Below, piece after piece: positions 20,709-38,910 of a stretch of 64,000 nt of DNA. The stretch spans positions 1,344,001-1,408,000 of the forward strand of contig OY760175.1 of NCBI GenBank assembly GCA_963663165.1. Reading direction: 5' to 3'. Position 1 is the stretch's first letter; every line of letters begins with the position of its first letter. Position numbers and translations under genes: made by a program. The notes beneath the pieces are model-generated. The model made no database searches. It worked only from the letters and a program-made list of their open reading frames with translations, and had not been told where the DNA came from. Source of the stretch: an uncultured Desulfospira sp. Its GTDB lineage: Bacteria; Desulfobacterota; Desulfobacteria; Desulfobacterales; Desulfobacteraceae.

Positions 20709-21380
20709 ATGCCGGATACCGTTTTTAAAGAAAGAGTCAGCGGACTTGAACAGATCATGATGGAGCTTGCCTATGAATCAATGAAAACTGACATGGCTCT
20801 CAAAAATCTTTCAGCAGAGATGAAAGACTTTAAAGACGAGATGAAAGACTTTAAAGACGAGATGAAAGACTTTAAAGATGAAATGAAAGACTTTAAAGAT
20901 GAAATGAAAGACTTTAAGAAGGAAATGAACAAAAAGTGGGGAGATCTGGCAAACAAGATGGGAACCATTGTTGAAGACATCGTTGCCCCCGGTTTAAAAG
21001 GTGTTGCCCGACAGTACTTTGGCGTGGAAGCTTTTGATCATTTTTCTTCCCGCACCATTATCCGCAACAAAGACCGGCCCACAACCCGTGAATTTGATAT
21101 AATTGCTTATACTGAAGACCTGTTTTTTATCGTGGAAACAAAAGCGACCCCACGGCCGGAGTATATTACGAATTTCATAAAATTTCTTCCCGAACTGGGC
21201 ACATGGTTTCCCGTCAGCCTGGAAAAAAAGCTGATTCCCATTTTTGCTTCTCTTGCCCTGTCCGATCAACATATCACCCACCTGACCAATCATAATATTA
21301 TCGCCATGGCCACCCGGGATGACGGGATGGATATTTACAATCCCGAGGTTCTGGAAAAGCTTGGCGTTAACGTTAAATAG
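20709..21380 (+). CDS. Coiled-coil repeat protein with PD-(D/E)XK-like C-terminal domain (DUF3782-like)
   Basis: (EMKDFKD)n, then WGDLANKMGTIVEDIVAP and REFDIIAY...IVETK. Confidence 0.8.
   Translation: MPDTVFKERVSGLEQIMMELAYESMKTDMALKNLSAEMKDFKDEMKDFKDEMKDFKDEMKDFKDEMKDFKKEMNKKWGDLANKMGTIVEDIVAPGLKGVARQYFGVEAFDHFSSRTIIRNKDRPTTREFDIIAYTEDLFFIVETKATPRPEYITNFIKFLPELGTWFPVSLEKKLIPIFASLALSDQHITHLTNHNIIAMATRDDGMDIYNPEVLEKLGVNVK
20817..20929 (+). repeat. In-frame 21-bp tandem repeat, ~5.4 copies
   Basis: GA(G/A)ATGAAAGACTTTAA(A/G)(GAC/GAT/AAG) units encoding EMKDFKD. Confidence 0.95.
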
Positions 21381-21395
21381 GAACGGCCTGTTTTT

Positions 21396-21440
21396 TAAGC
21401 AGGTAATCCTCCAATAACAGCTGGTTAGCGTGGCTCGACC
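21396..21440 (+). repeat. R repeat copy A (partial, 3' half only)
   Basis: taagcaggtaatcctccaataacagctggttagcgtggctcgacc matches the 3' half of copy C. Confidence 0.8.
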
Positions 21441-21536
21441 GTCAATATTCGCAAATTCCAAGAAGGTGTCCCCCGAATTCCATCCCCCGAATTCCGCGAA
21501 TTCCGAATCCCGGCAATGAACGTACAGGAAAAAATA

Positions 21537-21782
21537 TTAAGCAAGGACCTTCATTTGTTCATAAAGGAACTCAGGGGCCAGGTCCGCTCCGTTTTCCCAG
21601 ACAATCGTGTTCATGTCAGGGTCAACCCGGAATTTTTGAAATTCGGATAATTCTTTGAGAGGGCCGAAAACTTCGCCGGTGAGTTCATCTTGAAGGTCAA
21701 TTTCCCCGACAGCTTCGTTATTAAACCTTAGCCAAATAACATAACCTTTAATATATTTGGCTTCTTTGACATGTAAAAACAT
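21537..21782 (-). CDS. DUF2442 family protein (putative TA component)
   Basis: IWLRFNN...FGPLK...TIVWENGADLAPEFLY; paired with DUF4160. Confidence 0.85.
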   Translation of the reverse strand: MFLHVKEAKYIKGYVIWLRFNNEAVGEIDLQDELTGEVFGPLKELSEFQKFRVDPDMNTIVWENGADLAPEFLYEQMKVLA

Positions 21783-21785
21783 TTG

Positions 21786-22042
21786 TTACTCCAGTGGGGC
21801 TATGGAATTTAATTTTTCTTTATTTTCAGCCTTGGACCAGTTTTCAATCAAAGCGTCAACATTCAATATCCGCCACTCATTTATCATCCGAACAGCTCTA
21901 TTGGCCATTGTCCCTTTAACTTCTCCGCTAATAATGTCAACTGAAATCTCCTGATCACAGTATCGGGCATGAAAATGCGGCGGCATATGATCCTTATAAT
22001 AAATATAAATTACAATTCAAAAAAGCGAATAATTACAGGCAT
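21786..22042 (-). pseudogene. DUF4160 family protein, frameshifted near the 5' end
   Basis: ATG at 22042 gives MPVIIRFF, then a 1-nt deletion (TTT GA ATT instead of GGA ATT); the other frame continues IVIYIYYKDHMPPHFHARY. Confidence 0.75.
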
Positions 22043-22262
22043 TTTGCAATTACCACCCATAAATGATTTTATATACATTGTTTATGATATATCTGCTCAG
22101 CTTTGAAATCAAGTAAAGAACTCGCCCTGCCCAGAGTGATATATAAAAGTTAATAGACAGGCAATCCCTTAAATCAATGTTTTTGGGGGCAAAAACAGTC
22201 GATTAAGCCCATTTTACGTCTACTTTCAAGCAGTTAATTCTTTAATAACAGCTTGTTAGCGT

Positions 22263-24168
22263 GTCGCGGTAGGAATGCCGGTTACCCGGCACCCCCCGCA
22301 CAGATCCGTACGTGAGGTACTACCTCATACGGCTCCTACCTCGGGTAATAACGTTGAAATCTCTGATTTGGAAAAGGGTGAACAATTCTGACCCTTGGGA
22401 TCAACCATCTGATTAGTTTTTCAAAGCGCTCCCATGTGAAGTTCTGTCCTTTGTGACTCCTGCGCCTCAGTGTATGCAACCATGCCTTTGTTGTTTGGTC
22501 GTAGAAGCTTTTTACCAAATCCATGTTTCCGGGAACCGCATAATAATTCTGGAACCCTCTTATTACTGAATTTAGCCATTTTCCTGTTTCCTTTACATTG
22601 TCGTGCATACGTTCTTTCAGTTCAGCTTTGACTTCTTTCAGCTTTCGGACAAACCTTTTCTTAATAGTTTTACGACGTATGGTAAATGCGCCGCGTCGTG
22701 TCTTAGAGCACGAGTGGGTAAAGCCCAGGAAATCAAATGTCTCCGGTTTTCCTTGGCCTTTCCTCTGGCGGTTCGATTCTGCGAAACGTCCAAACTCAAT
22801 TAATCGAGTTTTATCCGGGTGCAGGTCAAGGCCAAATTTTCCCATTCTGCTAGTTAAATCCTTTAGAAAGTTTTCTGCATCATTTTTGTATTGGAAGCCG
22901 ACCACTGTATCATCGGCGTAACGGACTATGATTACGTCGCCTTTTGCATGTCTGCCTCTCCACTGATTTGCCCATAGGTCTTGTGCGTAATGCAGGTAAA
23001 CATTTGCCAATACAGGTGAGATTACCGAGCCCTGTGGGGTCCCGACTCCCTGTGCTATACGTTTACCGTCTTCAACAATCCCTACTTTGAGCCATTTTCT
23101 AATCAGCCGCAGTATTCTCTTATCCGCTACTCGGTGCTTTATAAATTTCAACAACCAATCGTGATTGATCTTGTCGAAAAATGCTGAAACATCGGCATCA
23201 AGTATATAATTTATTTTACACCTTGATATTCCCATGTATAAAGCGTCCAGAGCGTTATGTTGACTACGTTTTTCCCTGAAACCATAGCTAAAACCCATGA
23301 AGTCTGTCTCATAGATCTGGTTTAATATTATTGCCACTGCCTGCTGGACTATTTTATCTTCGAGAGCTGTTATCCCCAGTGGCCTTTTGCGGCCATCGGT
23401 CTTATTTATATAAGTCCTTTTTACCGGTGATGCTCTATAACTGCCAGCGTGCAATCTGTCGTGCAAGTATATTATCCGATTAGCTAAGTCTTCCTTGTAC
23501 ATATGCCAGGTTATTTCATCCACTCCTGGAGCAGCGTTTCTTTTTAGCTCAAAGAAGCTAACTGTCAGCAGGTCCGGGGTGATGTGATGAAAAAGGTTAT
23601 CAAACCTGACTTTCTTGTCCTGATGAGCTTTCCTACGCACACCATATAAACTGGTCGACGCAGCTACCCGCCCCTGTGTGCGGACTGCGGCAGTGCATAT
23701 GGTGTTTCCCTTGGTCAGCGTCCTTCCCTCCACCTGCTCCGCCGAGTTTTCAAACTCTTTGTTCGCTGGCTTCTTCGGTACTATGTTGCTGTCCGACTTC
23801 CACGGGCCGTGCATGGCAGCAGTATAGGATTTCCCCTTCACTGCCCGATCCCCTTTAGGGATAACCTGTGGATCTCCCGATTCCCGCGTAAAAGATGTCC
23901 ACACATGCCAGGTTCTAAGACTCCGCCGGGTTGTTCCCCTGCTTGCATAGCGCTGGGACTCATGTTGCCTTCCCTACCGGACCACGAGGTCGGCACCCGA
24001 GAGGTGGTGATTTCGGAGCTCAATAGCCCGCCTGTGCTTCCCTCTGTCCACGCTTCAGCCAATGCATTACTGCAATCGCCGCATGACTCGAGGCTGGTGT
24101 GATTTGCTAAACCTTCACCATAAGACTCTTTCATTCTCTATCCTTTACCGGTTTTAATCGGCGCTTTC
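22263..24168 (-). mobile_element. Group II intron (ribozyme plus RT/maturase ORF), 1906 nt
   Basis: Domain V GAGCCGTATGAGGTAGTACCTCACGTACGGATC; domain VI ending CCTACCGCGAC; boundaries fixed by comparison with uninterrupted R copies; EBS1 loop at 23978-23986. Confidence 0.92.
22336..23814 (-). CDS. ltrA: Group II intron reverse transcriptase/maturase (no HNH endonuclease domain seen)
   Basis: RPLGITALEDK, GTPQGSVISPVLAN, RYADD, FDFLGF and X domain; likely start MHGPWKSD at 23814. Confidence 0.93.
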   Translation of the reverse strand: MHGPWKSDSNIVPKKPANKEFENSAEQVEGRTLTKGNTICTAAVRTQGRVAASTSLYGVRRKAHQDKKVRFDNLFHHITPDLLTVSFFELKRNAAPGVDEITWHMYKEDLANRIIYLHDRLHAGSYRASPVKRTYINKTDGRKRPLGITALEDKIVQQAVAIILNQIYETDFMGFSYGFREKRSQHNALDALYMGISRCKINYILDADVSAFFDKINHDWLLKFIKHRVADKRILRLIRKWLKVGIVEDGKRIAQGVGTPQGSVISPVLANVYLHYAQDLWANQWRGRHAKGDVIIVRYADDTVVGFQYKNDAENFLKDLTSRMGKFGLDLHPDKTRLIEFGRFAESNRQRKGQGKPETFDFLGFTHSCSKTRRGAFTIRRKTIKKRFVRKLKEVKAELKERMHDNVKETGKWLNSVIRGFQNYYAVPGNMDLVKSFYDQTTKAWLHTLRRRSHKGQNFTWERFEKLIRWLIPRVRIVHPFPNQRFQRYYPR

Positions 24169-24386
24169 GGCCCGACCCCACCGCCAACCCACCGCCAGAC
24201 CCCCGCTGCGCTTTTAAATCTGTGAAATAGTGTTTGTTATGAAACCTTTCATATCTTATAATACAATACAAAAATGACTATTATTTCAGACTGGATTGCA
24301 TTGAGTTTGTAAAATGAAGGAACCATTTTATCCATTTTTCTAAATGGGATAGGATTTTTTTTAAAATGATCAACTACACAGCTAAA

Positions 24387-26229
24387 CCCAAAACAAGCGT
24401 GAGATAAGTAATAAAAATGAGATAAAATCCTCGAAACGCCTATCAATAAAAGGTATAATAAGTTTACCACAACGAAATATACCAAATTGAAAGGACGTTT
24501 CGAGTGAATAAAAATATCAACAAAAATTTGGCAAAACGCAAGAAAAAAATAAGCAAAAAGCTCAACAAAAGAGATTGGGATGAACAGCCAGCCCCTATGT
24601 TTAAAGCATCCAACATTCAATACGAGATTGACGGTCGCCTCCAAGGGGTTGCTCCCGGCGGCATAGGGTTAATTCATATGCTTGCCAAAAAGACCGGCCT
24701 TCTGAAAGAAATTGATAAGGAGCTCGAACTGCTTAAACGCCATTTGCCCTATCATGAATCAGATCATGTCGCCAACATGGCATATAATATTCTTGCCGGT
24801 GGCACCTGCCTTCAGGATATTGAGCTGCTCAGAAACAATGAAGCCTGGTTGAATGCTCTGGATGCAGAAATTATCCCCGATCCCACTACAGCCGGAGACT
24901 TTTTGCGCCGGTTTTCCAAGGAAGATATCATAACTCTGCAGGACGTCAAAAATACCATCCGGAAAAAGGTATGGGAAAAGCAGCCGCAAAACTTCAAGAA
25001 AGAAGCCATCATCAATATCGACGGCACTATCAGTGAAACAACCGGCGAGTGCAAACAGGGTATGGACATCTCTTATAATGGTAAGTGGGGATATGCCCCT
25101 CTGATAGTCTCTCTGGAAAAAACAAGGGAGCCTCTTTATATAATCAATCGATCCGGCAATGCTCCGTCCCACCTCAACTCTGCGGGTTGGGTGGATAAGT
25201 CCCTTGATCTGCTGGAAGGCACTTTTAAAAAATTATACGTTCGGGGTGATACTGATTTCAGCCTTACTTCCAATTTTGACAAATGGGATCAACGCTGTAC
25301 CTTTGTCTTTGGCATGGATGCCAGATCAAACCTGATAAAACTGGCCGGTGGTCTTTCAGATTCCGAATGGGAGATATTTGAAAAACAGCCGCAAGCCATC
25401 AAAACAATCCCCAGAAAACGTCCCGAAAATATCAAACTTCAAGTGGTCAAAAAACGCAATTTCAAACGTCTTGAGACCGCCTGTGAACATATAGCCGAAT
25501 TTGAATATAAACCTGGTAAATGTCGGCAACCCTACCGGATGATCGTGCTGCGCAAAACAATAAATGAGTATAAAGGCGAACGTCTATTGTTTGACGATAT
25601 CCGTTACTTTTTTTACATCACAAACGATTGGAAAAAATCAGCCAGGCACCTGGTGGATTTTTACCGGAAACGGGCGGATCACGAAAATGACATTGATCAG
25701 TTGAAACATGGCGTGCATGCAATGGCTAATCCTTCTGATTCCCTAAATGCCAACTGGGCCTATATGGTTGTTGCATCTTTGGCATGGGATCTGAAAGCCT
25801 GGTATGGAATGATGATGCCGTATCGAGCTTTAGGTCTCTCCATCGTCCGTATGGAATTCAAACGCTTTATCCAGACATTTATAAATATCCCTTGCTTGAT
25901 CATACGTTCCAGCAGGGCCATTAAATATCGAATCATTGGTTATAACAACAGGCTCACAAGCGTGTTCAAGTTTTTTAACTCTTTGAAGACTGCCTGGGTT
26001 ACATGATGCCTTTGCTCCGGACAGTTATTGCAAACGGGCTGCAATGGCGAGTCTAAAACCTGTAGATTTCAAAAGGGAATTTAAGCAATGAACCACAACA
26101 CAATCGGCAGTATTCCAAAAAACATCAGGACTCGTGCGTCTGTTTGATGGAAATTGGAGACACAAAATAATAGCTCGGGTCGACAATTGCTTATGAGAAA
26201 TTCATTTTTTATAACACGCTTGTTTTGGG
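24387..26229 (+). mobile_element. IS1380-family insertion sequence
   Basis: TIR CCCAAAACAAGCGTG / CACGCTTGTTTTGGG; (G)CTAAA direct repeat on both flanks. Confidence 0.92.
24504..26006 (+). CDS. IS1380-family transposase
   Basis: IPDPTTAGDFLRRF, INIDGT, VRGDTDF, YRKRADHENDIDQLK. Confidence 0.92.
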   Translation: MNKNINKNLAKRKKKISKKLNKRDWDEQPAPMFKASNIQYEIDGRLQGVAPGGIGLIHMLAKKTGLLKEIDKELELLKRHLPYHESDHVANMAYNILAGGTCLQDIELLRNNEAWLNALDAEIIPDPTTAGDFLRRFSKEDIITLQDVKNTIRKKVWEKQPQNFKKEAIINIDGTISETTGECKQGMDISYNGKWGYAPLIVSLEKTREPLYIINRSGNAPSHLNSAGWVDKSLDLLEGTFKKLYVRGDTDFSLTSNFDKWDQRCTFVFGMDARSNLIKLAGGLSDSEWEIFEKQPQAIKTIPRKRPENIKLQVVKKRNFKRLETACEHIAEFEYKPGKCRQPYRMIVLRKTINEYKGERLLFDDIRYFFYITNDWKKSARHLVDFYRKRADHENDIDQLKHGVHAMANPSDSLNANWAYMVVASLAWDLKAWYGMMMPYRALGLSIVRMEFKRFIQTFINIPCLIIRSSRAIKYRIIGYNNRLTSVFKFFNSLKTAWVT

Positions 26230-26431
26230 GCTAAATACACAAAAATCGATTCAGGGTACATGGGCCAGTTGGTGGAATGGCCCGAAGTGATCACCGAAGG
26301 CAAGAATCTTGAAGAATGCCGGGCCATGCTTCGGGATGCGCTCAATGAGATGGTGCTTGCTTACCGCCAAACCGGCAGGGAAATGCCCATTGGCAACGCT
26401 ATTATTGAGCAACTGCCCATTGAGGTTCACT

Positions 26432-26711
26432 ATGTCGGTCAAACGGCGTGATCTTATCCAACACATGAAACAGAATGGTTTCCATCTCCTAAGGGAAGGC
26501 GCCAACCATGCTATTTATATGAAAGTCTCACTAACGTCCTGAGAAGACTTTCAATATTTGTTGTGGGCGGCTCTTGGTTGGATAACCCAAGCCGTCCGTG
26601 ACGGTTTATACAAATGGAACCAAAATCATCCCTGTAAAACGCCACCGGCAATTCGATAGAATCACCGCAAACGAACTCTGCAAGCAAGCCGGGATAACAC
26701 CTAAATTCTAA
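26432..26711 (+). pseudogene. hicA: HicA-family toxin interrupted by a 91-bp hairpin element
   Basis: Removing the insert restores 62 aa MSVKRRDLIQH...REGANHAIY|TNGTKIIPVKRHRQ...CKQAGITPKF. Confidence 0.88.
26514..26610. mobile_element. 91-bp non-autonomous two-hairpin element bounded by TTTATA
   Basis: TGAAAGTCT...AGACTTTCA hairpin plus GGGCGGCTCTTGG...CCAAGCCGTCC hairpin; inserted in hicA; two more copies at 43416-43610. Confidence 0.85.
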
Positions 26712-26895
26712 TGATTGGATGAAATGGAAGTTTGCCATTGAAAGCTTGGCCAGCTTTTAAAAGTGTAACGCCTATCCCCTATATTCATAACGAAATAATG
26801 TAACGACCAGATACCCCGCTGCCATACCCTGCTAAAAAATTATAAAAATCATACCCCGCATGCCGACCCCGCCGGTAGACCCCGCCGCTGACTTA

Positions 26896-28274
26896 GGGAT
26901 GTGGTAAAATTAAAACCCACAATTCATTCCTCATAGCATGGAATATCAACAGCCCATTTTTCAATCCCTGGAATCCGAATAATTTTGTTTTCTATATTAT
27001 TCACGGCGGACTTGACCAAACGTACCCCTGTCGGGTAAACACCTTTGATTAATTTGACGACAGGATTTTCTCCTTTCCATGTCATTGTTCGACATAGACC
27101 GAGAACCTTTTCAATTTTGTTCAGCAATTCGCCTTTCCAATGATTTTCCAAAACACCCCAAACTCGCTCTATTGGGTTGTATTTACTGTGGTACGGGGGA
27201 TAGTACACCAAACTAATATTTACAAATGCTGATTTGGCAAAGTCCACGAGGCGACTAATGAATTGGCTCCTTCGGCTACTATTTTCCGGCCCATTATCAA
27301 GATTGATCACCAGTGTATGTGGGGCGAATCTTGCGTTCAAAGAAGGCCAGAGTGATTCCAGCGCATCAATCATGAAATCAGAGGTGATGTTGCTTTCAGT
27401 GAAGTACATATAATTTTCATCCAGAGCAGGTATGTTGATACCGAAAAGTTTCAAAAGGGAATCGGGTTTAAAATCATGGTCCGCCGCTTTAAGATTGCAA
27501 CGACTATATCCGCCTCGGGAATAAGGCCCTATTTTAATAGTGGCTTTTGCGTCCATTGAGATACGTAAAACGCCATCTGTTTCATCGGCTAGTTGGTTTG
27601 TCCTATGCACATATTCAAAAATGATGTCTGTTTCAGGAATTTTTTTTTACCTTGGCTTTGGCGACCTTCTTCAGTTTAAAACCCAATTTATTCATTATGG
27701 TGGATAGAGTCCGTACTGTTGGCATATTCTCAGGGTCATATCCCATGTCGTCAACTAATCGACGGAATACTTCATTCGCAGATATTGGGGAATATAAATT
27801 CTGGGTACGGAATGTAGGATCAGTCTGACATATAGGGTTTACAATACGAGTTATGTCCTCTTTTAAATTCGGAAAATGTTCTAAACACGATTTCCGGCCT
27901 CGTCCGGAAAAATTATCAACACAGGTAACTCCGCTTTCTATTTCCCGTCGCCCTTTGATTATTGTTTTCCGATCCCAACCCAGTTCTCTTTCAGCCTTTA
28001 GTTGTCCGCCGTGCCCCATAAGGGAGACAACGCGTGCCATGAATTGGCGCCGTTCATGGCCTTTTAATTTGCTTCGAGTGGTATTCAGAAAATCCTTTAG
28101 TGGTGGCGTTAATTCCGATATAGTTTTGGGTAAATTGTGCTTAGAATGATCAAACATGGTCCTCCTGTATTTTTATGTAATCTTCCATGTTGACCATAAA
28201 CTATCGATTCCATGTTGTCTATAAAAATCAGAATTCAGACTATGGAATTGTGGATATTAATTTTTCTGAGGCCC
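26896..28274 (-). mobile_element. ISAzo13-family IS, copy 1
   Basis: GGG...CCC imperfect TIRs, TTA on both flanks; near-identical to 55568-56947. Confidence 0.92.
26924..28157 (-). CDS. ISAzo13 transposase in two ORFs (27633-28157, 26924-27610) joined at an A9 run
   Basis: GWDRKTI, QTDPTF; KKIPETD across the shift; ISMDAKA, DNGPEN, YYPPYHSKYNPIER. Confidence 0.88.
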
Positions 28275-28325
28275 TTATTCAAAATTTGCTACATATAATC
28301 TCCGTGATTCGAATCTTGGAGAAAA

Positions 28326-28676
28326 ATGATGGCAAAGAATTCTCGTGGAAAACGCCCTTGCTCTATTTGCCGAAAATGGTTTGCTCCTGATGTAAGACAA
28401 AAAGGCCGACAGAGAACATGCAGTCCGGTTTGCCAAAATGAGCTTCATCGAAGGCAATGTGAAAACTGGAACAGGAAAAACAAAGCGGTCTCCATAAATA
28501 ATTACCTGGCAAAGAAAATTGAAAAGGCTCAAAACCTTCAAACATCCGGGAAATTGCCTGTTTTGCCGCTGGAAGTTATTGAAACAGAATACGGTATCAA
28601 GCCGGCAATTATCGTCGAATATCTGGTTGCCCAGGTTATCTGTCATACCAAAGAAAAAATTCGAGAATTCCCATAA
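28326..28676 (+). CDS. Hypothetical Cys-rich (putative Zn-finger) protein
   Basis: PCSICRKWF...TCSPVC; GGAG RBS. Confidence 0.7.
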   Translation: MMAKNSRGKRPCSICRKWFAPDVRQKGRQRTCSPVCQNELHRRQCENWNRKNKAVSINNYLAKKIEKAQNLQTSGKLPVLPLEVIETEYGIKPAIIVEYLVAQVICHTKEKIREFP

Positions 28677-28684
28677 ACACCTCT

Positions 28685-28852
28685 GACTAATCGAATATTG
28701 ATTTCAAGAGACAAGGTTATGGTAACCTCTTGTAATATTAAGATATACAAACAGAGTAATCGAATTTTGATTCTAAGAGACATCATGCGCATAAGTTGTT
28801 GATAATATATATAGATACAAACAGAGTAATCAGTATTCCAGTTCAAGAGGCA
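28685..28852 (+). repeat. Three imperfect ~29-bp direct repeats at 69-70 bp spacing
   Basis: GA(C/G)TAATC...AAGAG(A/G)CA at 28685, 28754 and 28824; exact 17-mer ATACAAACAGAGTAATC at 28745 and 28815. Confidence 0.7.
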
Positions 28853-28919
28853 ACTGACAGCCGACCCTGGCCGGTGATATAAAAAGGCATCTGAAATTCT
28901 AAAAATAAGGAGATGTCTC

Positions 28920-29276
28920 ATGGCAAACAGGTTTTCATCCCGGGAATTATTTGAACTGAGGAACAATATCCCTGTGGATATGCTGATCAGGGATCATTTA
29001 CAGATTCCATCCAAGATCAGGGATGGCTACTTTCGTTTTCTATGCCCTTTGTGCAATGAATTTCAAACCGCTGTAAATCCAGGCACGAACCTGGCCAGGT
29101 GCTTCAGATGCGAAAAGAATTTTAATACCATCGACCTTGTCATGAAAATCAAGGGTTATGGCTTCCGGGATAGTGTTTTGTTTTTGAAACAAATAAATAC
29201 GGCCCCCCAGGTTCAGACCGCAAAATTGACGGCTCTTGCTGCTATGGTCGGCAGACCCATGCCGGCAGGGCAGTGA
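28920..29276 (+). CDS. CHC2-type zinc-finger protein (DnaG Zn-binding-domain-like)
   Basis: FLCPLC...ARCFRC...NTIDLVM..KGYGFRDSV. Confidence 0.8.
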   Translation: MANRFSSRELFELRNNIPVDMLIRDHLQIPSKIRDGYFRFLCPLCNEFQTAVNPGTNLARCFRCEKNFNTIDLVMKIKGYGFRDSVLFLKQINTAPQVQTAKLTALAAMVGRPMPAGQ

Positions 29277-29836
29277 ATATGGAACGGTTGCTTGAGCTTG
29301 AAACCCTGATTGGTCGCAACCAGGAATGTTTTTACAAAATCGGTCGGGCCTTGAAGGAAATTCGAGATAACCGTTTGTACAAACAGGCTTTGTTTGAGTC
29401 ATTTGAAACATATACCAGGCAGCGATGGGATATGGGCAAGGCTTATGCCTACCGCCTGATCAGAGCCTATGAAGTGATCTACAATTTGTCGCCAATTGGC
29501 GACAAGCTACCTGCCAACGAATCCCAGGTCCGTCCCCTGACTCAAATGGACTCCATAGAACAACGCCGTATCTGGAGGGAGATTATAAACAGCGGCATGG
29601 AACTGACCGCACAAAATATCAAAAAATTTATTGAGGCCCGGAAAACGGCTCCGGCAAGTAGACCGGATCTGACAAATAAAATTTCAAATGAATACATGGC
29701 TGTTGTAAAGGCAATGCTTGAGCAGGTCCGTGTGGCACAACATGATCATTGGCAGCAGACCTCCCGCCAAGCCGCATTGTTGTGGCACCGGGTCATATAC
29801 GAAAAGATCATATCAAAGGGGGCAGATAATGGATGA
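29273..29836 (+). CDS. Hypothetical putative DNA-binding protein of the mobile element
   Basis: IGRALKEIRDNRLY...FETY...AYRLI...PANESQVRPL; translationally coupled to its neighbours. Confidence 0.65.
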   Translation: MNMERLLELETLIGRNQECFYKIGRALKEIRDNRLYKQALFESFETYTRQRWDMGKAYAYRLIRAYEVIYNLSPIGDKLPANESQVRPLTQMDSIEQRRIWREIINSGMELTAQNIKKFIEARKTAPASRPDLTNKISNEYMAVVKAMLEQVRVAQHDHWQQTSRQAALLWHRVIYEKIISKGADNG

Positions 29837-31492
29837 CCTAAGCATTGACGACCGCTTCCACTTACTGCTGCACAAAAAAATCATGAACAAAACTGGATCT
29901 GCCAAGAGAAGATCCAAAAAATATTACAAGGACCAGTACAAAAAAAACGGGATTATCCCGCCTCCCCTTTTACTGGTTGAAAAAGGAATTATGGATGGCC
30001 GCAAGTGCAGCGGGCGGCCCAGAGTCATAGACGAACAAACCCAAAGGCGGTTTATTGAAATGGTCAAGGCGTCATGCGACCCCTCATCCCAGGGGTTCAT
30101 TTTTATCACCCGGAGAGCCAGGACCATTAAAAATTACCACTACTGGCTTGAGGAAGAGTTGGGGAAAAAATCAGTCTTCCTGCACTTTGGCGATGCGCCA
30201 AAAGGGAGAATCTCAAATTTTACCTGGAAAAAGAGGACGATCAGGAGCCGTCACCGGCACGTTATACCTTCAAATCGGTTCCGGTGTTTACCTTGATCCA
30301 GGTTGACGGTTGCAAGTTCCAATATTTAAGAATCAGAGATGAACATGGCCACTGGCAGAAACCACAGGTAATTGAAATATTCGATACCGGCTCCAGGAAG
30401 CTGTTTATTATGGAATTCTATTTTACCGAAAGCAATCTGAACGCTGTGGACCTTTTTACCCGTTTTTTGTTGTGCACACCTTTTCCTTTGATAACAATCG
30501 GTATCAGGCCTGATCGGGCAAAGGGATTTTTAAATCTCAAGCGTCCCATTAATGCTATTAACCTTGCGCATTCTACGCCGGGCGGTTTTTATTTGGCACC
30601 GGAATTTTCAAGGGCGCATTCCCCCAAAGATAAGGCGCATCTGGAATCTTCACACCGGAGCCTGCACAATTTTGAAATAAGGGTTATCAAAACCTTTGAG
30701 GACAGGATTGTGAAAACCGTTACCGAATACGATTTCAAGCGGGGAAGAAAGGAAAAAGTTACTGTAACCCTTCTTGATATCACCCTTGATGAATTGAGGA
30801 ACAGCACTGTGCTCAGTCAATACCGTAACGAACACAATCATACACAACATTATTTTACCGAAGACGGCGTAGTCAGTGCCTGGGTACCGGCACAAAAGTT
30901 TGATGATTTTTTATCAAACCAGACAGACACCCTGAATTTTACCCCGGAGCAGGTTCAGGAATATATGAAATACGGTTACAGGAAAATCAAAGCCACGGTA
31001 TCCAAACATAGAACCATCCGCCATGACAAAAGGGATTATTATGTGACCAGTGGTGCAGACCGGTTCAGCAGGCATAAAAGTACACCGGTAAAAATATCCA
31101 GATACAGGGACAAACTTTTTATCTTTGAGCCCAGTGAAGACGGCATACTGATAGGCGAAGCCATTGCAAAAAAGCCGTTTGACAGCCCGCCGTCCCCAGC
31201 GCCCGCTCCTGTGCCAGACGAACTCGACACCATTATCGCTCTTTTGGAAAAGCACAATATGGCCGTTGATCGGCCTATTTTAATCGAAGTTTACCATAAG
31301 GGCCTCACCCTGTCCCTAGCGGAGCAAGTACTTCACCATAATCAATCAAGGTACGCAGATTACATGAAAAAAATGAACCAGCCTGAGGAACGTAAAAATC
31401 AAGCCTTATTTAATGCTTTTATGCTTGATTGCCAAAAATCGTTAAATACGAATCAGGTGGCCACTTATGCATCCCACGGAGATATGCCATGA
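29829..31492 (+). pseudogene. DDE transposase/integrase (rve/Mu-like) with a frameshift at GGGGAAAAAA (30161-30170)
   Basis: N-terminal SGRPRV HTH-like region; the shifted frame ISLPALWRC... joins ORF 30284-31492 with IQVDG, RPDRAKGF, KAHLESSH. Confidence 0.7.
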
Positions 31493-32151
31493 AAGAGGAT
31501 TTTATCAGTGATAAACGAAGGGTCTCATACCTGTCTGCTACTTATAACAGGATATACAGGGGTCAAAGCGTACTCATTGAAGGGGATTTTGGCGCAGGCA
31601 AAACTCGTTTTTTAAGACTGCTGCGGCCTAAAAAGCTCCATGCCGTATGGGTCGAGTCTCTGTTCAACATCCATGAAACCCTGGCATCCATACTTAAAGA
31701 ACTGAATTATGAGACCTCCGCCACTTACCGCCGGACTCCCCAGTACCTGAAAACGATCTGCAACCTATCCAATTGTTTTATCATCATAGATGAAGCCAAC
31801 GACCTGGACTCCCGGGTTTGGCCATATCTCAAACGAATTATTGATGCCGGTGTCCCCATCGTATTTGCAGGGCTCCCCAAGGTCAGAACCTATTTGAGCC
31901 GGAATCATCCCGATATACTCAGCCGGCTCAAAACTCTGATTTTATATCCCATAGAGGTCGAGGACTTCATTGAAAAATACAAAGATATCCAGCATGAAGC
32001 AGTTGAACAGATATATATGGCCGTCAAAGGCGACATGAGAAAATTTAAAGAAATCTGTACAGACTGTCAGGACAGGGCAAAGGAGTTGAACCACAACTTT
32101 GTTGATATCAATCTTGCCCTGGAATTTATATCCGACCTTCCTCCCCAGTAA
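31489..32151 (+). CDS. AAA+ ATPase (TniB/ExeA/MuB-like transposition helper)
   Basis: GDFGAGKT Walker A, IIIDEA Walker B; ATG overlaps the transposase stop (ATGA). Confidence 0.8.
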   Translation: MKEDFISDKRRVSYLSATYNRIYRGQSVLIEGDFGAGKTRFLRLLRPKKLHAVWVESLFNIHETLASILKELNYETSATYRRTPQYLKTICNLSNCFIIIDEANDLDSRVWPYLKRIIDAGVPIVFAGLPKVRTYLSRNHPDILSRLKTLILYPIEVEDFIEKYKDIQHEAVEQIYMAVKGDMRKFKEICTDCQDRAKELNHNFVDINLALEFISDLPPQ

Positions 32152-32603
32152 TCCTTATCACAATTTATCTGCACTAACAGGCCACCTTGTGTTAGCACCA
32201 AGGGCGGCCTTGTTGTATCTGTTCATTATATAATGGTGCCGATGCCTGCTTGATCTATTGTTAATGTCTTGAAACCACAGACCATTTTTGAGTTCTTTTT
32301 GGACCGTTACATTATTTTGCAATTATTCTTTTGATGACGATTTCACTCAACACTTTTAAATCACAATAAAAACATTGATTTTTATCGGTAGCATCAAGCC
32401 TCAACACCGTTACAGTATTTGAAGCTCGTCAAAAGCTGTGATTATTGGCAAAACCTTCTTAAGGGTCTATAGTCTGTGATACTTGATATCTTTAGCGAAT
32501 ATTCTCGATTATAACCGGATTGCAATATTTTGAATCTTTGATAAAATATTTATTCAGTAATGTTGAGGCCATCACAACAAAAATAGAGAATAGAGGGCTT
32601 ATC

Positions 32604-32825
32604 ATGCATCACAACACAATTTCTCCCAGCGAACAAGAAAGGTTCATTCTGGCCAAAATCAGGATGCTGCCTCCGGATAAAATTGCCGAGGTTTCAAATT
32701 TTGTGGACTTTATCAGCCAAAAAAACCAGGACCGGAAACTGAGCAAAGCCGCCCGTGAAATGGCGGAAGACGCATTCAAAAGAGTCTGGGATAATGCCGA
32801 GGATGACGCATATGATCGCCTATAA
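32604..32825 (+). CDS. Putative antitoxin (DUF2281-like)
   Basis: LPPDKIAEVSNFVDFI...WDNAEDDAYDRL; overlaps the toxin start. Confidence 0.75.
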   Translation: MHHNTISPSEQERFILAKIRMLPPDKIAEVSNFVDFISQKNQDRKLSKAAREMAEDAFKRVWDNAEDDAYDRL

Positions 32826-33150
32826 CTTCGGGGATGTTATACTGGTGCCATTTCCATTTACTGATCAGAGTACAAGTAAAAAGCGCCCGGCGGTCATCAT
32901 CAGCTCAAACTCATATAATCAAGAACGGCCGGATGTTGTAATTATGGCCATCACCAGTCAAATCCACGGTTCTGGTTATTTTGGTGATATCCGTATCCAA
33001 AAATGGCAGCAGGCCGGTCTTTTAAAAGCATCAGTCATCAAGCCGATTCTGACTACCGTTGAAAAAGGCCTCATCATAAAAAAATTAGGCTGCCTCTCTG
33101 ACAATGATCAAGAAGCCTTGAACAAAGGACTGCAAACTATTATTGGATAA
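32812..33150 (+). CDS. PemK/MazF-family toxin
   Basis: GDVILVPFPFTD...KKRPAVIIS...AITS. Confidence 0.9.
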   Translation: MIAYNFGDVILVPFPFTDQSTSKKRPAVIISSNSYNQERPDVVIMAITSQIHGSGYFGDIRIQKWQQAGLLKASVIKPILTTVEKGLIIKKLGCLSDNDQEALNKGLQTIIG

Positions 33151-33199
33151 TTCTATCATTTTTTTATGAGATCGGAACATATAAAATAGAAGCCAGCAA

Positions 33200-33306
33200 C
33201 CTTAAATCGATGTTTTTGGGGGTAAAAACAGTCGATTAAGCCCGTTTTAGGCCCCCAAATAAGCAGGTAATCCTTTAATAACTGCTGGTTAGCGTGGCCC
33301 GACCCC
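33200..33306 (+). repeat. R repeat copy C (107 bp)
   Basis: ccttaaatcgatgtttttgggggtaaaaacagtcgattaag...ggttagcgtggcccgacccc. Confidence 0.9.
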
Positions 33307-33384
33307 ACCGCGACCCACCGCGGTCCGTGCCCACCGCGCTCCGTCCGGCACCCAAGTCCCAACTATGTACTTTTTTTCAACATG

Positions 33385-33424
33385 TGTGAAAACTTTTTCA
33401 CACCGTTGTGAACTTTTTTTCACA
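33385..33424. promoter_or_regulatory. Tandem palindromic enhancer sites (PEP-CTERM-box/bEBP-like)
   Basis: TGTGAAAACTTTTTCACA (33385) and TGTGAACTTTTTTTCACA (33407), 22 bp apart and 150-190 bp upstream of a sigma-54 promoter. Confidence 0.7.
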
Positions 33425-33573
33425 ATGAGTGTTTTCCCTGATTTTTCAGCTTTCATTTTTTAATGGGGTTGTATTAAGACAATAAATAATTTCGTCTACA
33501 ACCGTTTGAATTATAAGCTTTTTAAATCCATAAATCCTAAAAGAAGAAAATAATTGACACTTTTAAAAAATTA

Positions 33574-33589
33574 TGGCACTGTTATTGCA
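33574..33589 (+). promoter_or_regulatory. Sigma-54 promoter
   Basis: TGGCAC-TGTTA-TTGCA, consensus -24/-12. Confidence 0.85.
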
Positions 33590-33790
33590 TTTATAGATTA
33601 GCGTTACACAATGAAAAAAGTAGCAAACTTAAAATTGTACCATCAGAAAGGAGGCTAAATTAGGTACAGGGTTTGGTAAGAATTTTAACTTGGGGATAAA
33701 TTAAGTATCGTCCCCGGAATTTTGAAATTTAATTAAGAAGGGGGCTGTCCCCCCGGAATTAGAATTAAGACTTAAAAGAGGATTATAATC

Positions 33791-34720
33791 ATGAAATTTT
33801 TACGTTTGTTATTAGTGGCAAGTTTGTTGGTATTGTTTTCCAACAGCGCTTATGCTGACCCCTTTGCCATAGACCTTGACGGTGATGGTGATCTTGATAC
33901 TGGTACGGGTATCGGTGGTGCTTATGTAGATGAGATAGACTACTCAAGCTATGGTATTGTAGACCTTTACATTAATAGTATTACTACGGAACTTTCAGGT
34001 GATTTTAATGAACTCGCAGTCATTAAAGTTAGCGACAGTGAATTTTCTGGTGTTGGTGATTATGAAATGACAATTGTTCTTCAGGGTTCCGGTACCTTCA
34101 CTGCTGATTATGAGACTAATACTTCAGGAGACATCATAGTGGGGGATCAGGATTTTAGTTTCACTTCCGGTTCGCTGTCGATATACATAGACGATGGCAC
34201 TAATGTAAATTTCCTATCCACAGTTGCTGATGATGGAACTTATGTCGGTGCGGACGATGGTGACAAGGTTGCGACCTTCACCTTGACAACCGGCAACGGT
34301 ACTCTTCAGACTACTGAAGGTGAGACGGACAATGTTGATATCTGGAGCCTTCTTCTCGACTCTATTGCAGAGGACACCTTTTTCTTTGAAACTGGAATTG
34401 ATTTTAATGATGTTCTTGATCTAATTGCCGGGATTTTCGTACAACTCTACACCAATGATACCAACGAAGTACTTACTGATTCTGATATAATTGCCGGTCT
34501 TGAAGATGATCTTCAAAATGAACTTGCCGATGGTAATTACACTGAGATGTCCGGTGTTATCAAAGATCCAGATACAGGTGACGTAGTAGCTGAAGCTACC
34601 AGAATTTATGTTGAAACAGAAGGCTCGGCTGAGTTCTCTATCGTTCCCGAACCTACTACCATGCTTCTTTTCGGGCTTGGCCTTCTCGGCTTTGCCGGCT
34701 TGGGCAGAAGAAAGATTTAA
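33791..34720 (+). CDS. PEP-CTERM sorting-domain surface protein
   Basis: Signal peptide (..SAYA); acidic D/T/G-rich body; C-terminal VPEPTTMLLFGLGLLGFAGLGRRKI. Confidence 0.95.
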   Translation: MKFLRLLLVASLLVLFSNSAYADPFAIDLDGDGDLDTGTGIGGAYVDEIDYSSYGIVDLYINSITTELSGDFNELAVIKVSDSEFSGVGDYEMTIVLQGSGTFTADYETNTSGDIIVGDQDFSFTSGSLSIYIDDGTNVNFLSTVADDGTYVGADDGDKVATFTLTTGNGTLQTTEGETDNVDIWSLLLDSIAEDTFFFETGIDFNDVLDLIAGIFVQLYTNDTNEVLTDSDIIAGLEDDLQNELADGNYTEMSGVIKDPDTGDVVAEATRIYVETEGSAEFSIVPEPTTMLLFGLGLLGFAGLGRRKI

Positions 34721-34751
34721 GCTTTAGATTATCGTTTTTTACTTTCGTTAC

Positions 34752-34787
34752 AAAAAACCCGGTAGCTTGTGAGGCTACCGGGTTTTT
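34752..34787 (+). terminator. Rho-independent (bidirectional) terminator
   Basis: AAAAAACCCGGTAGCT-tgtg-AGGCTACCGGGTTTTT. Confidence 0.85.
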
Positions 34788-34819
34788 GTTATTGTGCGAT
34801 TATGGTCAAAATCTAGGCG

Positions 34820-34926
34820 GGGGTCGGTCCGCGCCAACCAGCTGTTATTAAACGATTAACTGTTTAAAAACTGCCCTAAAACGAGCTTAATCGACTCTTT
34901 TCACCCCCCAAAACACTGATTTAAGG
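34820..34926 (-). repeat. R repeat copy D (107 bp, inverted relative to A-C)
   Basis: ggggtcggtccgcgccaaccagctgttattaaa...cactgatttaagg. Confidence 0.9.
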
Positions 34927-35003
34927 ATTTAACCCCAAATTCGATACTGTAAAATGGTATGGAAAGAATACGATTTTTAATATCCATATCATCCTTACGG
35001 GTC

Positions 35004-35110
35004 GGGGTCGGGCCACGCAAACCAGCTGTTATTAAACGATTAACTGTTTAAAAACTGCCCTAAAACGAGCTTAATCGACTCTTTTCACCCCCCAAAACGC
35101 TGATTTAAGG
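35004..35110 (-). repeat. R repeat copy E (107 bp), overlapping the ATPase stop codon
   Basis: ggggtcgggccacgcaaaccagctgttatt...cgctgatttaagg. Confidence 0.9.
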
Positions 35111-36422
35111 ATTTAACCCCAAATTCGATACTGTAAAATGGTATGGAAAGAATACGATTTTTAATATCCATATCATAGCCTGCCTGTGAAATTTTTATGC
35201 CAAAGTCAGATTTGAACGTATCAATAAACAGATGCATGCTTTTCATGTGCCCGTTGGCGCCGGATTTAACCTCAACGGGGATAACTTTCTCATTTTTTAC
35301 AATAAGGTAGTCTATTTCGGCGGTACTGTTCCGGGCGGCGCGGGCCCAATAATAAAGCGACGGCTTTGTATAGGCAGACTGATTTGCCATTAACTGCTGC
35401 CCTACAAACTGCTCGGAAACAGCGCCTTTAAAAATATCTGTAAAATCTTTTGCCCGGGCTGTTTCACCATAAATGTGATTCATTGCATGCATGAGTCCAA
35501 CATCAAGAAACAATGCCTTAAAATAGTTTTCTTTTGCACCGGCTTCTAAAGGCAGACCGGCGCCGCTTGTGGATTTGATCCTGACAATAACGCCTGCCAT
35601 TTCCAATAATTCAACAGCCTCTTTTAACTCTCTGGATTTAATGGAGCTGTCAATATTGGTGTAAACAAATTTTTGGCCCACCATTTTAGGCACGGCATAG
35701 AATACTTTTCGCAAATATCTGTGTTTCACTTTTTTTGCGTATTTCCCAAAGTCATCCATATACGTGTCAACTATTGACTGCTGGATTCTCTGGCATTTTT
35801 CAATATTTCCGGATAACCTATACTCCTGAAGCACCGCCGGCATACCACCTAATAAAAAGAATTTTCTAACATATTCAAGCAAACGGATATGAAGCGCCTC
35901 AGGCAATTTTTGCAGTTCAACTTTATTGTTTATATGTTTTCTCAGGGCTGTTTCGCCCATTGCATCAAGAAACTCCCCGTATGACAGGGGAAACATATAC
36001 AGGTACTGGACCCGGCCAACGGGCATACGAAAATTCTCAGAGTTCAAAGTAAATTCAACCAAAGATCCGGCGGCAATAACATGTAACTTGGGAAGTTCCT
36101 CGAAGAAATACCTTAATGCCATAATGGCTGCCGGGCAATCCTGTATTTCATCTAAAAAAAGCAATGTTTTTCCAATACTGGCTTGCTGCTGGGAAAACAA
36201 AAATATTTTTTCTAGAATTTCAACGGGATCAATACTTGTAAAAATCTCTTTATATTCAGGGTTCTTTTCAAAATTGAGTTCAATATAATTTTCAAATTCT
36301 TCCTTCCCAAAATGCCTGACCACATATGTTTTTCCAACTTGCCGTGGGCCACGGATAATTAATGGGCGCCTGTTTGATTCGGCTTTCCATTGCACAAGGA
36401 CTTCATATACATCTCTTTTCAT
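35085..36422 (-). CDS. AAA_14/DUF4143-family ATPase
   Basis: GPRQVGKT, LFLDEIQ, GGMPAV, EIDY...PVEVKSG. Confidence 0.9.
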   Translation of the reverse strand: MKRDVYEVLVQWKAESNRRPLIIRGPRQVGKTYVVRHFGKEEFENYIELNFEKNPEYKEIFTSIDPVEILEKIFLFSQQQASIGKTLLFLDEIQDCPAAIMALRYFFEELPKLHVIAAGSLVEFTLNSENFRMPVGRVQYLYMFPLSYGEFLDAMGETALRKHINNKVELQKLPEALHIRLLEYVRKFFLLGGMPAVLQEYRLSGNIEKCQRIQQSIVDTYMDDFGKYAKKVKHRYLRKVFYAVPKMVGQKFVYTNIDSSIKSRELKEAVELLEMAGVIVRIKSTSGAGLPLEAGAKENYFKALFLDVGLMHAMNHIYGETARAKDFTDIFKGAVSEQFVGQQLMANQSAYTKPSLYYWARAARNSTAEIDYLIVKNEKVIPVEVKSGANGHMKSMHLFIDTFKSDFGIKISQAGYDMDIKNRILSIPFYSIEFGVKSLNQRFGG

Positions 36423-36591
36423 TATCCATATCTCGTATTATAAATGGTTAATGAATTATAAAAGGGAGATGGCCGAAATACAAGGATATTTTCTATAGAA
36501 ATTGGACTTTTTCCAAGGTAAAAACAGATGTTTTTTGGACAAAATCCTGTCTGCGCCTTTGCACCGAGGGCTTCGCCCTATTTTTTTATAT

Positions 36592-36673
36592 TCTCACGCT
36601 AAGGCGCTAAGGCGCAAAGAAACAGCATTGCCCAAGGGGAATTTAAACTTTGCGCCTTTGCGCCTTTGCGAGA
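36592..36673. repeat. Octamer-repeat hairpin 'H' (CGC(T/A)AAGG / CTTTGCGC arms)
   Basis: tctcacgctaaggcgctaaggcgcaaag...ctttgcgcctttgcgcctttgcgaga; near-identical to 38911-38983. Confidence 0.85.
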
Positions 36674-36687
36674 TTATGGTTAGGCGG

Positions 36688-36794
36688 GGGGGCGGGCCAC
36701 GCCAACCAGCTGTTATTAAACGATTAACTGTTTAAAAACGGCCCTAAAACGAGCTTAATCGACTTTTTTCACCCCCAAAAACACTGATTTAAGG
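36688..36794 (-). repeat. R repeat copy F (107 bp)
   Basis: gggggcgggccacgccaaccagctgttatt...cactgatttaagg. Confidence 0.9.
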
Positions 36795-36806
36795 ATTTGG
36801 CTGATC

Positions 36807-37394
36807 CTATTTTGATTCAAACCTAATATCCCAATAGATTTCAGACAGCGGCAACTGGCAATTAACGGATTCCATCTTTAAAATCCGGTCTTCACCTTCG
36901 TATGAACGATATTCCCACTTACCGCCATCACCGCGTATAAATTGTTCAACATGATACTCATCCTGAGAAACAAGTATATACTCCTGAAGCGTCGGAATGG
37001 CCCGGTAATAAGCAAATTTTTTGCCTCTGTCAAAAGCCTCGGTTGACTCAGAAAGGATTTCCATTATAACAACCGGGTTTGTCAGCGTGTCAAATTCATT
37101 ATCTTCAAACTCTGGGTCACCGCAATGAATTACAATATCAGGGTAAACATAGTTGTCTGCAATTTTCACACGCATATCATTGGAAACTGCTTTACAGGCG
37201 GAGTTATCCGCTTTGAATTTATTTCTTAACTCCCCTGCCAGGTTGGCATTAATATAAATATGATTTTTTTTTGCGCCAACCATGGCAAAGACTTCACCAT
37301 CAAAAAATTCATGTTTAACATCAAGAGCGTTTCTTTCAAGGTCAAGATACTCCCCTGGTGTCATTTTATTTTTATCCTGAGCCTGTGAGGTCAT
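36807..37394 (-). CDS. Uma2-family (DUF820) endonuclease
   Basis: KHEFFDGEVFAM, YPDIV, EILSESTEAFDRGKKF, LQEYILVSQ. Confidence 0.9.
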   Translation of the reverse strand: MTSQAQDKNKMTPGEYLDLERNALDVKHEFFDGEVFAMVGAKKNHIYINANLAGELRNKFKADNSACKAVSNDMRVKIADNYVYPDIVIHCGDPEFEDNEFDTLTNPVVIMEILSESTEAFDRGKKFAYYRAIPTLQEYILVSQDEYHVEQFIRGDGGKWEYRSYEGEDRILKMESVNCQLPLSEIYWDIRFESK

Positions 37395-37474
37395 CTTTTC
37401 CCTCCCATTTTGATTCAATTTGCCTGAATGACTTTATACACATAATAATATACGTGCGGTTTGCCCCCCTGTCT

Positions 37475-38686: not shown

Positions 38687-38910
38687 CTGGAGTATATTCC
38701 AACTTATTATCATTTTTTTGGGAGTATACTCCAATTATAGGAAAAAATCAAACTTTGCAAGGGGGGGGTTATCGGGTGACCCTACGACCATGCCTTCATT
38801 TGGAACACGGAGAATTGGCACGATACTAATTAATTGGATTGAATAATTGGGCAGTAAAAATTACATTTTACCCTTTGGCCTATCAAAAAACCCGCCCTCT
38901 ATTTTTATAT

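Follow-up and report, generated by a model that had tools for sequence, protein, structure and literature searches.

Genes for relatives of the REP-associated tyrosine transposases (RAYTs; REP, repetitive extragenic palindrome) that lie between long inverted repeats sharing the motif GGGGWSAS were described by Di Nocera, De Gregorio and Rocco (2013) as TIRtrons or TIRYTs, and in that account the TIRtron repeats also form moderately abundant families of singles, dimers and clusters (PMC3733652). Most TIRYTs belong to TnpA-Y1 subclass 2.1, which is characterised by a median length of 238 aa and a C-terminal helix-turn-helix (HTH) tail and is prevalent in the delta-proteobacteria among others (Quentin et al., 2018; PMC6006769); the same group appears in Bertels et al. 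(2017) as RAYT Group 1, the most insertion sequence (IS)-like of the RAYT groups (PMC5581495). For the E. coli enzyme TnpAREP, cleavage and recombination of its repeats in vitro have been reported (Ton-Hoang et al., PMC3333891). Here we compare these systems with a repeat of approximately 107 bp, termed R, found in a 64,000-nt stretch (the window) of contig OY760175.1 of an uncultured Desulfospira sp., and conclude that R is not an integron-type recombination site but probably a non-autonomous repeat family whose cognate enzyme is a RAYT-like Y1 (HUH) single-stranded DNA (ssDNA) transposase. TIRYT-type relatives of the RAYTs are common, yet we know of no function tested for them. A preliminary description had presented R as a possible recognition site of an undescribed cassette-capture system acting in trans, and had proposed following R, its neighbouring genes and any Y1/RAYT genes across related genomes. 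Window coordinates refer to the 64,000-nt stretch, and all other loci are given as contig positions.

The transposase gene linked to R

The genome to which the window belongs contains one intact RAYT-like gene, located 3.57 Mb from the window (contig position 4910707-4911432; the open reading frame (ORF) spans 4910635-4911465, and 4911432 is the probable start of the gene). This gene encodes a Y1 HUH transposase and is tightly boxed by inverted copies of R, the hairpin ends of which face the gene and the GGGGTCGG ends of which point outward, the layout of a TIRtron. A second copy (804748-806101) is split by an IS200-type tnpA, and no further close copy was found by tblastn of the genome. The interrupting tnpA (Y1_Tnp, 150 bits) was mapped to L012:1425-1859, corresponding to contig position ~804925-805359. 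Inverted R copies at wider spacing enclose a gene for a Y1_Tnp protein in three cases, namely these two in this genome and one in genome G040, where a gene for a 261-aa Y1_Tnp protein was found between inverted R copies. Among 12 homologous loci, R(-) and R(+) lie tight against the gene at eight, spread over seven genomes; the other four comprise the broken copy, where additional genes separate the R copies, one locus on a 687-nt contig end and two loci in genome G005, to which we return below.

Several comparisons place the encoded protein near the RAYTs. The Pfam family Y1_Tnp matched the ORF at locus L054 (P0002) with 32.9 bits and the own-genome ORF (P0001) with 20.7 bits, the second score falling short of the cut-off of 23. 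The sole NCBIfam match of the protein was NF047646, REP-associated tyrosine transposase. The best solved relative was E. coli TnpAREP (4er8), in an alignment that paired the HuH and Y motifs but had a weak E-value of 0.045. Homologs, several of them from Desulfobacterales, are named 'REP element-mobilizing transposase RayT' or 'REP-associated tyrosine transposase' by their sources. In an alignment of 22 homologs the segments TSNH[ITV]HLL and C-x-x-Y-[IM]-D-x-N-M were invariant or nearly so, and the C-terminal region was also conserved, its fold being unknown.

With the presence of a homolog judged at E<=1e-20 in 41 genomes, 13 had both R and the gene, 10 had R only, two had the gene only (weak or partial) and 16 had neither. 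Being related, these genomes are not independent samples, so that the counts overstate the association and are indicative only; many of the assemblies are also fragmented. Thus 13 of the 15 genomes with the gene also carry R, and all nine genomes with at least 13 R copies have a match to the gene, which in G022 and G033 is a fragment only. The earlier suggestion of an HUH/RAYT-like ssDNA transposase acting in trans is therefore supported both by the distant Y1 gene boxed by inverted R and by the homologs in R-rich genomes.

Form, spread and outer end of the repeat

Four rounds of nhmmer over the whole genome (6.74 Mb, one contig) gave 69 hits that resolved into 57 non-overlapping copies of R. 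A covariance model of the repeat returned 55 matches in this genome and, applied to 41 genomes of the same order, detected R in 23, from several families, with up to 61 matches per genome. Copies are clustered, with 43 of the 57 having a neighbour within 3 kb compared with a mean of 2.8 over 1000 random placements. Copies not associated with the gene take the form of singlets, head-to-head doublets of 225-295 bp, or same-orientation clusters such as that in the window. In the doublets two R copies face each other at a distance of 20-90 nt with the GGGGTCGG ends outward. One 247-bp doublet is present at two loci of genome G002 with unrelated flanks; the head-to-head doublets move as units. Three loci of the own genome share one and the same 133-nt singlet. 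The top strand of R lies on the leading-strand side, as judged by GC skew, in 41 of 57 copies, a bias that is confounded by gene orientation and by the clustering of copies.

Such doublets resemble miniature inverted-repeat transposable elements (MITEs), and R could be regarded as the end of a DDE-type (e.g. Tn3-like) transposon or a MITE, with the Y1 gene a mere passenger. DDE transposase genes abound in the region, and the outward GGGGTC ends of R may resemble the starts of Tn3-family inverted repeats. However, a search for target-site duplications at 10 doublets found none, the gene boxed by inverted R at the eight loci in seven genomes was always that for the Y1 protein, and no DDE gene was seen boxed in this way, making a DDE origin of R extremely unlikely.

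In the window, a repeat search and direct reading of the sequence identified five full copies of R (B-F) and a 3′ half copy (A), each at the place reported in the preliminary description (Table 1); the repeat search grouped D, E and F in one family and paired B with C, and A with both B and C. Homology between copies usually begins 2-3 nt before TTAA and ends 5 nt after GACCCC, which defines R as a self-contained unit, 105-110 nt long, whose outer edge is sharp. It has an inner hairpin (TTAA..TTTT, loop, AAAA..TTAAG) and an outer GTGGCCCGACCCC end, the latter, G-Y-G-G-Y-C-C-G-A-C-C-C-C, being the best-conserved part. Copies E and F are 94.6% identical, and D and E are the two halves of a tandem duplication of 184 nt, which takes in 66 nt from the end of the ATPase gene and shows 98% identity over 173 nt. 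The hairpin noted earlier is strong in some copies, C among them, and eroded in others: of eight copies folded, three gave z <= -2.1 and five gave z > -1.2, so that the structure described from copy C holds for only part of the family.

A hairpin followed by a C-rich, G-poor tail, placed 3′ of genes in the same orientation, could also be expected of an element kept by selection for its use to the host as RNA or DNA, whether as a 3′ end stabiliser, a terminator or a protein-binding site, the transposase link then being historical. Such roles have been proposed for REPs in the account of Di Nocera et al. (PMC3733652). At gathering thresholds, however, Rfam matched only a group II intron and offered no family for R; no T-run follows the hairpin in the window copies, the hairpin is degraded in many copies, and near-identical copies at unrelated loci indicate recent spread. 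We therefore consider it very unlikely that R is mainly a host element, although such a role is compatible with spread by a transposase and does not exclude it.

Of 42 copies, 30 have GGGGWSGS at the outer end of R and none has GGGGWSAS. The 80 nt outside this end are often made of short tandem repeats. Taking a score of at least 12 as strong periodicity, we found strongly periodic tails at 14 of 50 copies in the own genome (upstream control 1/50, shuffles 0/50) and at 25 of 78 copies in other genomes (upstream control 2/78, shuffles 0/78), and doublets showed the same tandem pattern at both ends. A tail unit opens with the bases that come first in the flank and closes with (GA)CCCC, and some units take in 20-35 nt of the end of R. 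In amplification model B of Ton-Hoang et al., cleavage is followed by extension of the free 3′-OH, a further cut of the new strand and rejoining, and tandem tails that span the junction would be the units that this model predicts (PMC3333891). The tails and the D-E pair may accordingly be read, by analogy, as footprints of TnpAREP-type amplification that would mark the position directly after GACCCC as the cleavage site. We know of no instance in which the TnpAREP amplification model has been seen in vivo.

By the same analogy with E. coli TnpAREP and with IS200/IS605, the enzyme would bind R folded in ssDNA at replication forks and cut at or beside its outer end, directly after GACCCC, and the rejoining of strands would move or amplify R. 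Repeated rounds of cutting, extension and rejoining, both at the genuine site and at CCCC-like pseudo-sites close to it, could generate the short tandem duplications outside R, and the same events could yield larger duplications such as the D-E pair. Insertion and persistence of R in the dispensable intergenic DNA of accessory islands might then leave it 3′ of toxin, Uma2 and DUF4143 genes. With ~57 copies here and up to 61 in relatives, the family is large enough for putative enzyme footprints to be read from sequence.

A number of results weigh against R being the repeat of a RAYT-like enzyme. The NF047646 scores of the two proteins, 53.6 and 65.9 bits, lie under the curated cut-off of 80, and the Y motif is Y-D-NM in place of Y---NP, the class 2 signature of Quentin et al. 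(2018), with Met replacing Pro in 22 of 22 homologs. No C-terminal HTH (Bac_DnaA_C, HTH_23, HTH_28) was matched in Pfam in four family members, even at E-values up to 10. At the two G005 loci R lies on both sides of the gene in direct, not inverted, orientation. Ten R-bearing genomes, with at most 10 copies each, lack a homolog at the threshold used, and G026 and G031 have a weak or partial homolog and no R; the inflated co-occurrence counts and the confounded strand bias belong here too. For the repeat itself, RNAalifold over 42 copies gave no consensus structure, and the 16-pair hairpin was no better paired than column shuffles (69.9% versus 69.4%), the latter result likely because bulges shift the register in an ungapped alignment.

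Integron sites, neighbouring genes and the cassette question

The features of the window around R are listed in Table 1. The layout given in the preliminary description was recovered, with copies A, C, E and F just 3′ of DUF3782-like, mazF, DUF4143 ATPase and Uma2 genes and copy B beside an oppositely oriented toxin-antitoxin (TA) pair, the DUF4160/DUF2442 genes of the minus strand. The gene upstream of A contains six in-frame 21-nt tandem repeats (20781-20948) that encode the KDFKDEM heptads. Copy B is split by an intron, as had been noted: Rfam matched group II intron families between its two parts on the minus strand (RF02005 at 23911-24129, RF00029 at 22263-22337). The corresponding R copy of the congener G001 is uninterrupted, which fixes the insertion point between GTTAGCGTG and GCCCGACCCC. 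When other copies of the intron were sought in the genome as a test of homing to R, it proved to be single-copy, with only a 42-nt fragment elsewhere; this fragment, from the intron 5′ end (contig position 1246183-1246224), lies ~49 nt outside another R copy.

Table 1. Copies of R and associated features in the window.
Feature	Window position	Strand	Remarks
DUF3782-like gene upstream of A	20709..21380	+	coiled-coil protein, KDFKDEM repeats; DUF3782 match weak, below cut-off
R copy A	21396..21440	+	5′-truncated, model positions ~50-103; begins 15 nt past DUF3782-like gene stop
Tail of copy A	21441..21520	+	short tandem repeats rich in C, units of CCCCCGAATTCC type; period 14, periodicity score 13
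DUF2442 / DUF4160 gene pair	21537..21986	-	separates A from B; oriented opposite to B
R copy B, left part	22167..22268	+	runs up to ...GTTAGCGTG
Group II intron	22269..24169	-	reverse transcriptase ORF 22336-23904; inserted in conserved outer motif of copy B
R copy B, right part	24170..24179	+	GCCCGACCCC; then C-rich tail (accgccaacccaccgcc...)
mazE-like / mazF (PemK) pair	32520..33150	+	upstream of C; mazF ends 49 nt before C
R copy C	33200..33306	+	full; best-formed inner hairpin among window copies, z -2.12
Tail of copy C	33307..33350	+	tandem ACCGCG...CCC units; score 12, period 16
R copy D	34820..34926	-	full; bears 66-nt duplicate of ATPase gene 3′ end (34927-34992)
R copy E	35004..35110	-	full; overlaps last codons of DUF4143 ATPase gene
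AAA_14/DUF4143 ATPase gene	35085..36422	-	upstream of E; absent at syntenic locus of congener G001
Tail of copy F	36620..36687	-	GCAAAGGC units, tandem; score 15, period 8
R copy F	36688..36794	-	full; 12 nt past Uma2 stop
Uma2 gene (36807-37418) and second DUF4143 ATPase gene (37475-38734)	36807..38734	-	upstream of F

Arrays of genes and sites with TA cargo recall integrons, and R could in principle be a divergent attC, its clusters being clusters of attC sites lacking integron-integrases (CALINs) served by the IntI of the genome. The preliminary description had reported no IntI, which holds for the window; elsewhere in the genome, 2.8 Mb away, an IntI is encoded (contig position 4194663-4195604) that matches TIGR02249 with 456 bits, above the cut-off. 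IntI was detected in 17 of 23 R-bearing genomes compared with 8 of 18 without R. Group II introns specific to attC sites sit opposite to the cargo direction, as does the intron in R. The true integron of this genome, however, has an array of classic attC sites (GCACAAC...GTTGTGC, ~125 nt) upstream of intI (L033, 4178000-4197500), and none of the 57 R copies lies within 680 kb of that intI. As stated earlier, R lacks the attC frame: RYYYAAC near the 5′ side or GTTRRRY near the 3′ side was found in none of 40 full copies, flanks included, and the most conserved part of R reaches 16 nt beyond its only GTT. Head-to-head doublets are common, and G038 (16 R copies) and G040 (30) gave no IntI match. 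In G010 R lies 2.6 kb from intI, beyond the single cassette and after a GGDEF-like gene as read by eye, which was treated as a coincidence. Taken together, these observations leave hardly any probability that R is an attC site. For annotation, a cassette-like array that lacks an integrase can thus turn out to be a cluster of RAYT-type repeats.

The integron array at L033 also contains two PemK genes, and group II intron ends lie there beside repeated segments. Many sets of three adjacent tyrosine-recombinase genes recur in the genome at 4-8 loci with identical scores (e.g. contig positions 9004-11580, 2334603-2337179 and 4198923-4201319, the last beside the integron); these resemble recombinase-in-trio elements in high copy number.

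Tabulating the neighbours of R showed that it is often just 3′ of toxin, Uma2 and DUF4143 genes, which, with the tandem tails, is one of two unusual features of the family. Pfam-supported genes ending just upstream of R in the same orientation encode YoeB (2), DUF4258, ParE (2), PIN, PemK (2), Zeta toxin and GNAT proteins, and others of the same set encode Uma2 (2), DUF4143 ATPase (two genes, three R copies), DUF218 and an autotransporter fragment. In the own genome R is directly 3′ of two of three Uma2 genes, two of nine PemK genes and three of 18 DUF4143 genes, and in G005 a copy follows a HepT toxin gene. The syntenic region of G001 has kept a frame of DUF3782-like gene, R, R, PEP-CTERM gene, R, R and Uma2, and is without the intron, two IS remnants, the 4.1-kb element described below, mazEF in its window form and the unit of ATPase gene and copy E. 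Cargo thus differs between congeners, but recombination between 107-nt repeats or the insertion of other mobile elements would explain the differences equally well.

A full cassette model would make R and its upstream gene a mobile unit, with the RAYT-like enzyme using the end of GACCCC as both cleavage and target site at successive R copies. The segment of flank, gene and R would leave as a single-stranded circle and insert 3′ of another R, producing same-orientation arrays of TA, Uma2 and DUF4143 genes, and the tandem tails bounded by (GA)CCCC would be abortive mini-cassettes. Consistent with this are the same-orientation clusters and close spacing of copies, the position of R directly 3′ of toxin, Uma2 and DUF4143 genes (and of HepT in G005), the sharp end of homology at GACCCC together with a variable 5′ reach, the (GA)CCCC boundaries of tail units, and the presence here of an ATPase+E unit that is absent from the syntenic site in G001. 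Sequestering of flanking genes by TnpAREP was also proposed by Ton-Hoang et al. (PMC3333891).

On the other side, a comparison of gene+R modules revealed none that recurs at a second place with R ends as its two borders. An ATPase paralog of the E-linked gene, located elsewhere in G001, has no R, and its homology ends 19 nt from the position of R. Two loci of the genome (window 36688-38734 and contig position 808972-810900) have DUF4143 ATPase, Uma2 and R in this order, but the DNA likeness of the two modules is confined to part of Uma2 (72% identity over 381 nt). The paralogs at 559350/561106 have in common 751 nt of a spacer of 1652 nt. Loss of the ATPase+E unit can be accounted for by recombination between E and F, and REPs generally sit 3′ of genes according to Di Nocera et al. 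(PMC3733652). Cassette capture, the central proposal of the preliminary description, is not supported in view of the G001 paralog and the limited likeness of the two modules, and we regard it as unlikely. Were it true, the system would be an ssDNA, HUH-driven counterpart of the integron; the link of R to TA, Uma2 and DUF4143 genes in any case raises the testable question of whether such enzymes spread repeats only or shuffle neighbouring genes too.

Two further elements of the window were noted. A second and far commoner repeat of ~95 nt (26514-26610) has 252 blastn matches in the genome and dozens in G001, often in tandem with steps of 92-97 nt. One of its copies (contig position 3022875-3022967) lies ~700 nt from a distant Y1_Tnp paralog (3023687-3024007), and the repeat may represent a second RAYT-repeat system. 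Besides unknown ORFs, a 4.1-kb element (28274-32431) carries a CHC2 zinc-finger ORF (28920-29276) and encodes an AAA ATPase (31429-32151); G001 has three copies of this element at 99-100% identity, none of them at the syntenic site, and it is probably a mobile element of unknown type.

Comparison with described systems

With integron attC arrays and CALINs, R shares same-orientation arrays of genes and sites, TA cargo and a group II intron within the site. It differs in being without R′′/R′ frames and without a link to intI, in forming inverted doublets, and in a conserved end that is 13 nt long. The likeness to IS200/IS605 elements extends to Y1 HUH chemistry, subterminal hairpins, the lack of target duplication and a bias to the lagging-strand template, which the orientation bias of R matches. 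In contrast, the R-linked protein is longer and clusters with RayT and not with IS200 TnpA, the own-genome IS200 TnpA scores 150 bits on Y1_Tnp compared with 21-33 bits for the R-linked proteins, and the R system is without tnpB and has gene-less repeats that far outnumber the gene.

The description of the system as undescribed does not stand, as RAYT-like genes in long inverted repeats with a GGGGWSAS-type end and dispersed families were published in 2013 (PMC3733652). We file the R system with the known TIRtron/REPtron kind of RAYT-repeat system, as a new repeat family; the subclass is left undecided because of the GGGGWSGS end, the Y-D-NM motif and the absence of a detected HTH, despite the fitting arrangement. 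Relative to the published accounts of TIRYTs and subclass 2.1, position 7 of the motif is G in the R system and A in GGGGWSAS (PMC3733652), the R-linked protein has YIDLNM and not Y---NP, no HTH tail was detected in it, and Quentin et al., in their treatment of the subclass, saw no repeats near such genes (PMC6006769). The arms formed by R, ~107 nt with an inner hairpin, also set it apart from TIRtrons as described. Shared with TIRtrons, in the terms of Di Nocera et al., are a RAYT-like Y1 gene of ~250 aa between long inverted repeats, a GGGG-W-S motif at the outer end and moderately abundant repeats occurring as singles, dimers and clusters (PMC3733652), to which a low gene copy number with occasional duplication can be added.

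Compared with REPtrons and REPIN-RAYT systems as reported, R is 107 nt long and not 20-40 nt, has ~57 copies and not hundreds, and includes singlets that have spread alone; the GT[AG]G tag, which classical REPs bear 5′ at the foot of their palindrome, was found in the first 14 nt of only one of 42 copies. What the R system has in common with them, judging from the published descriptions, is a Y1 HUH enzyme gene flanked on either side by its own dispersed repeat in inverted orientation, inverted doublets that move as units, repeats placed 3′ of genes, and the tandem reiteration of repeats together with flanking DNA (PMC3333891, PMC3116915).

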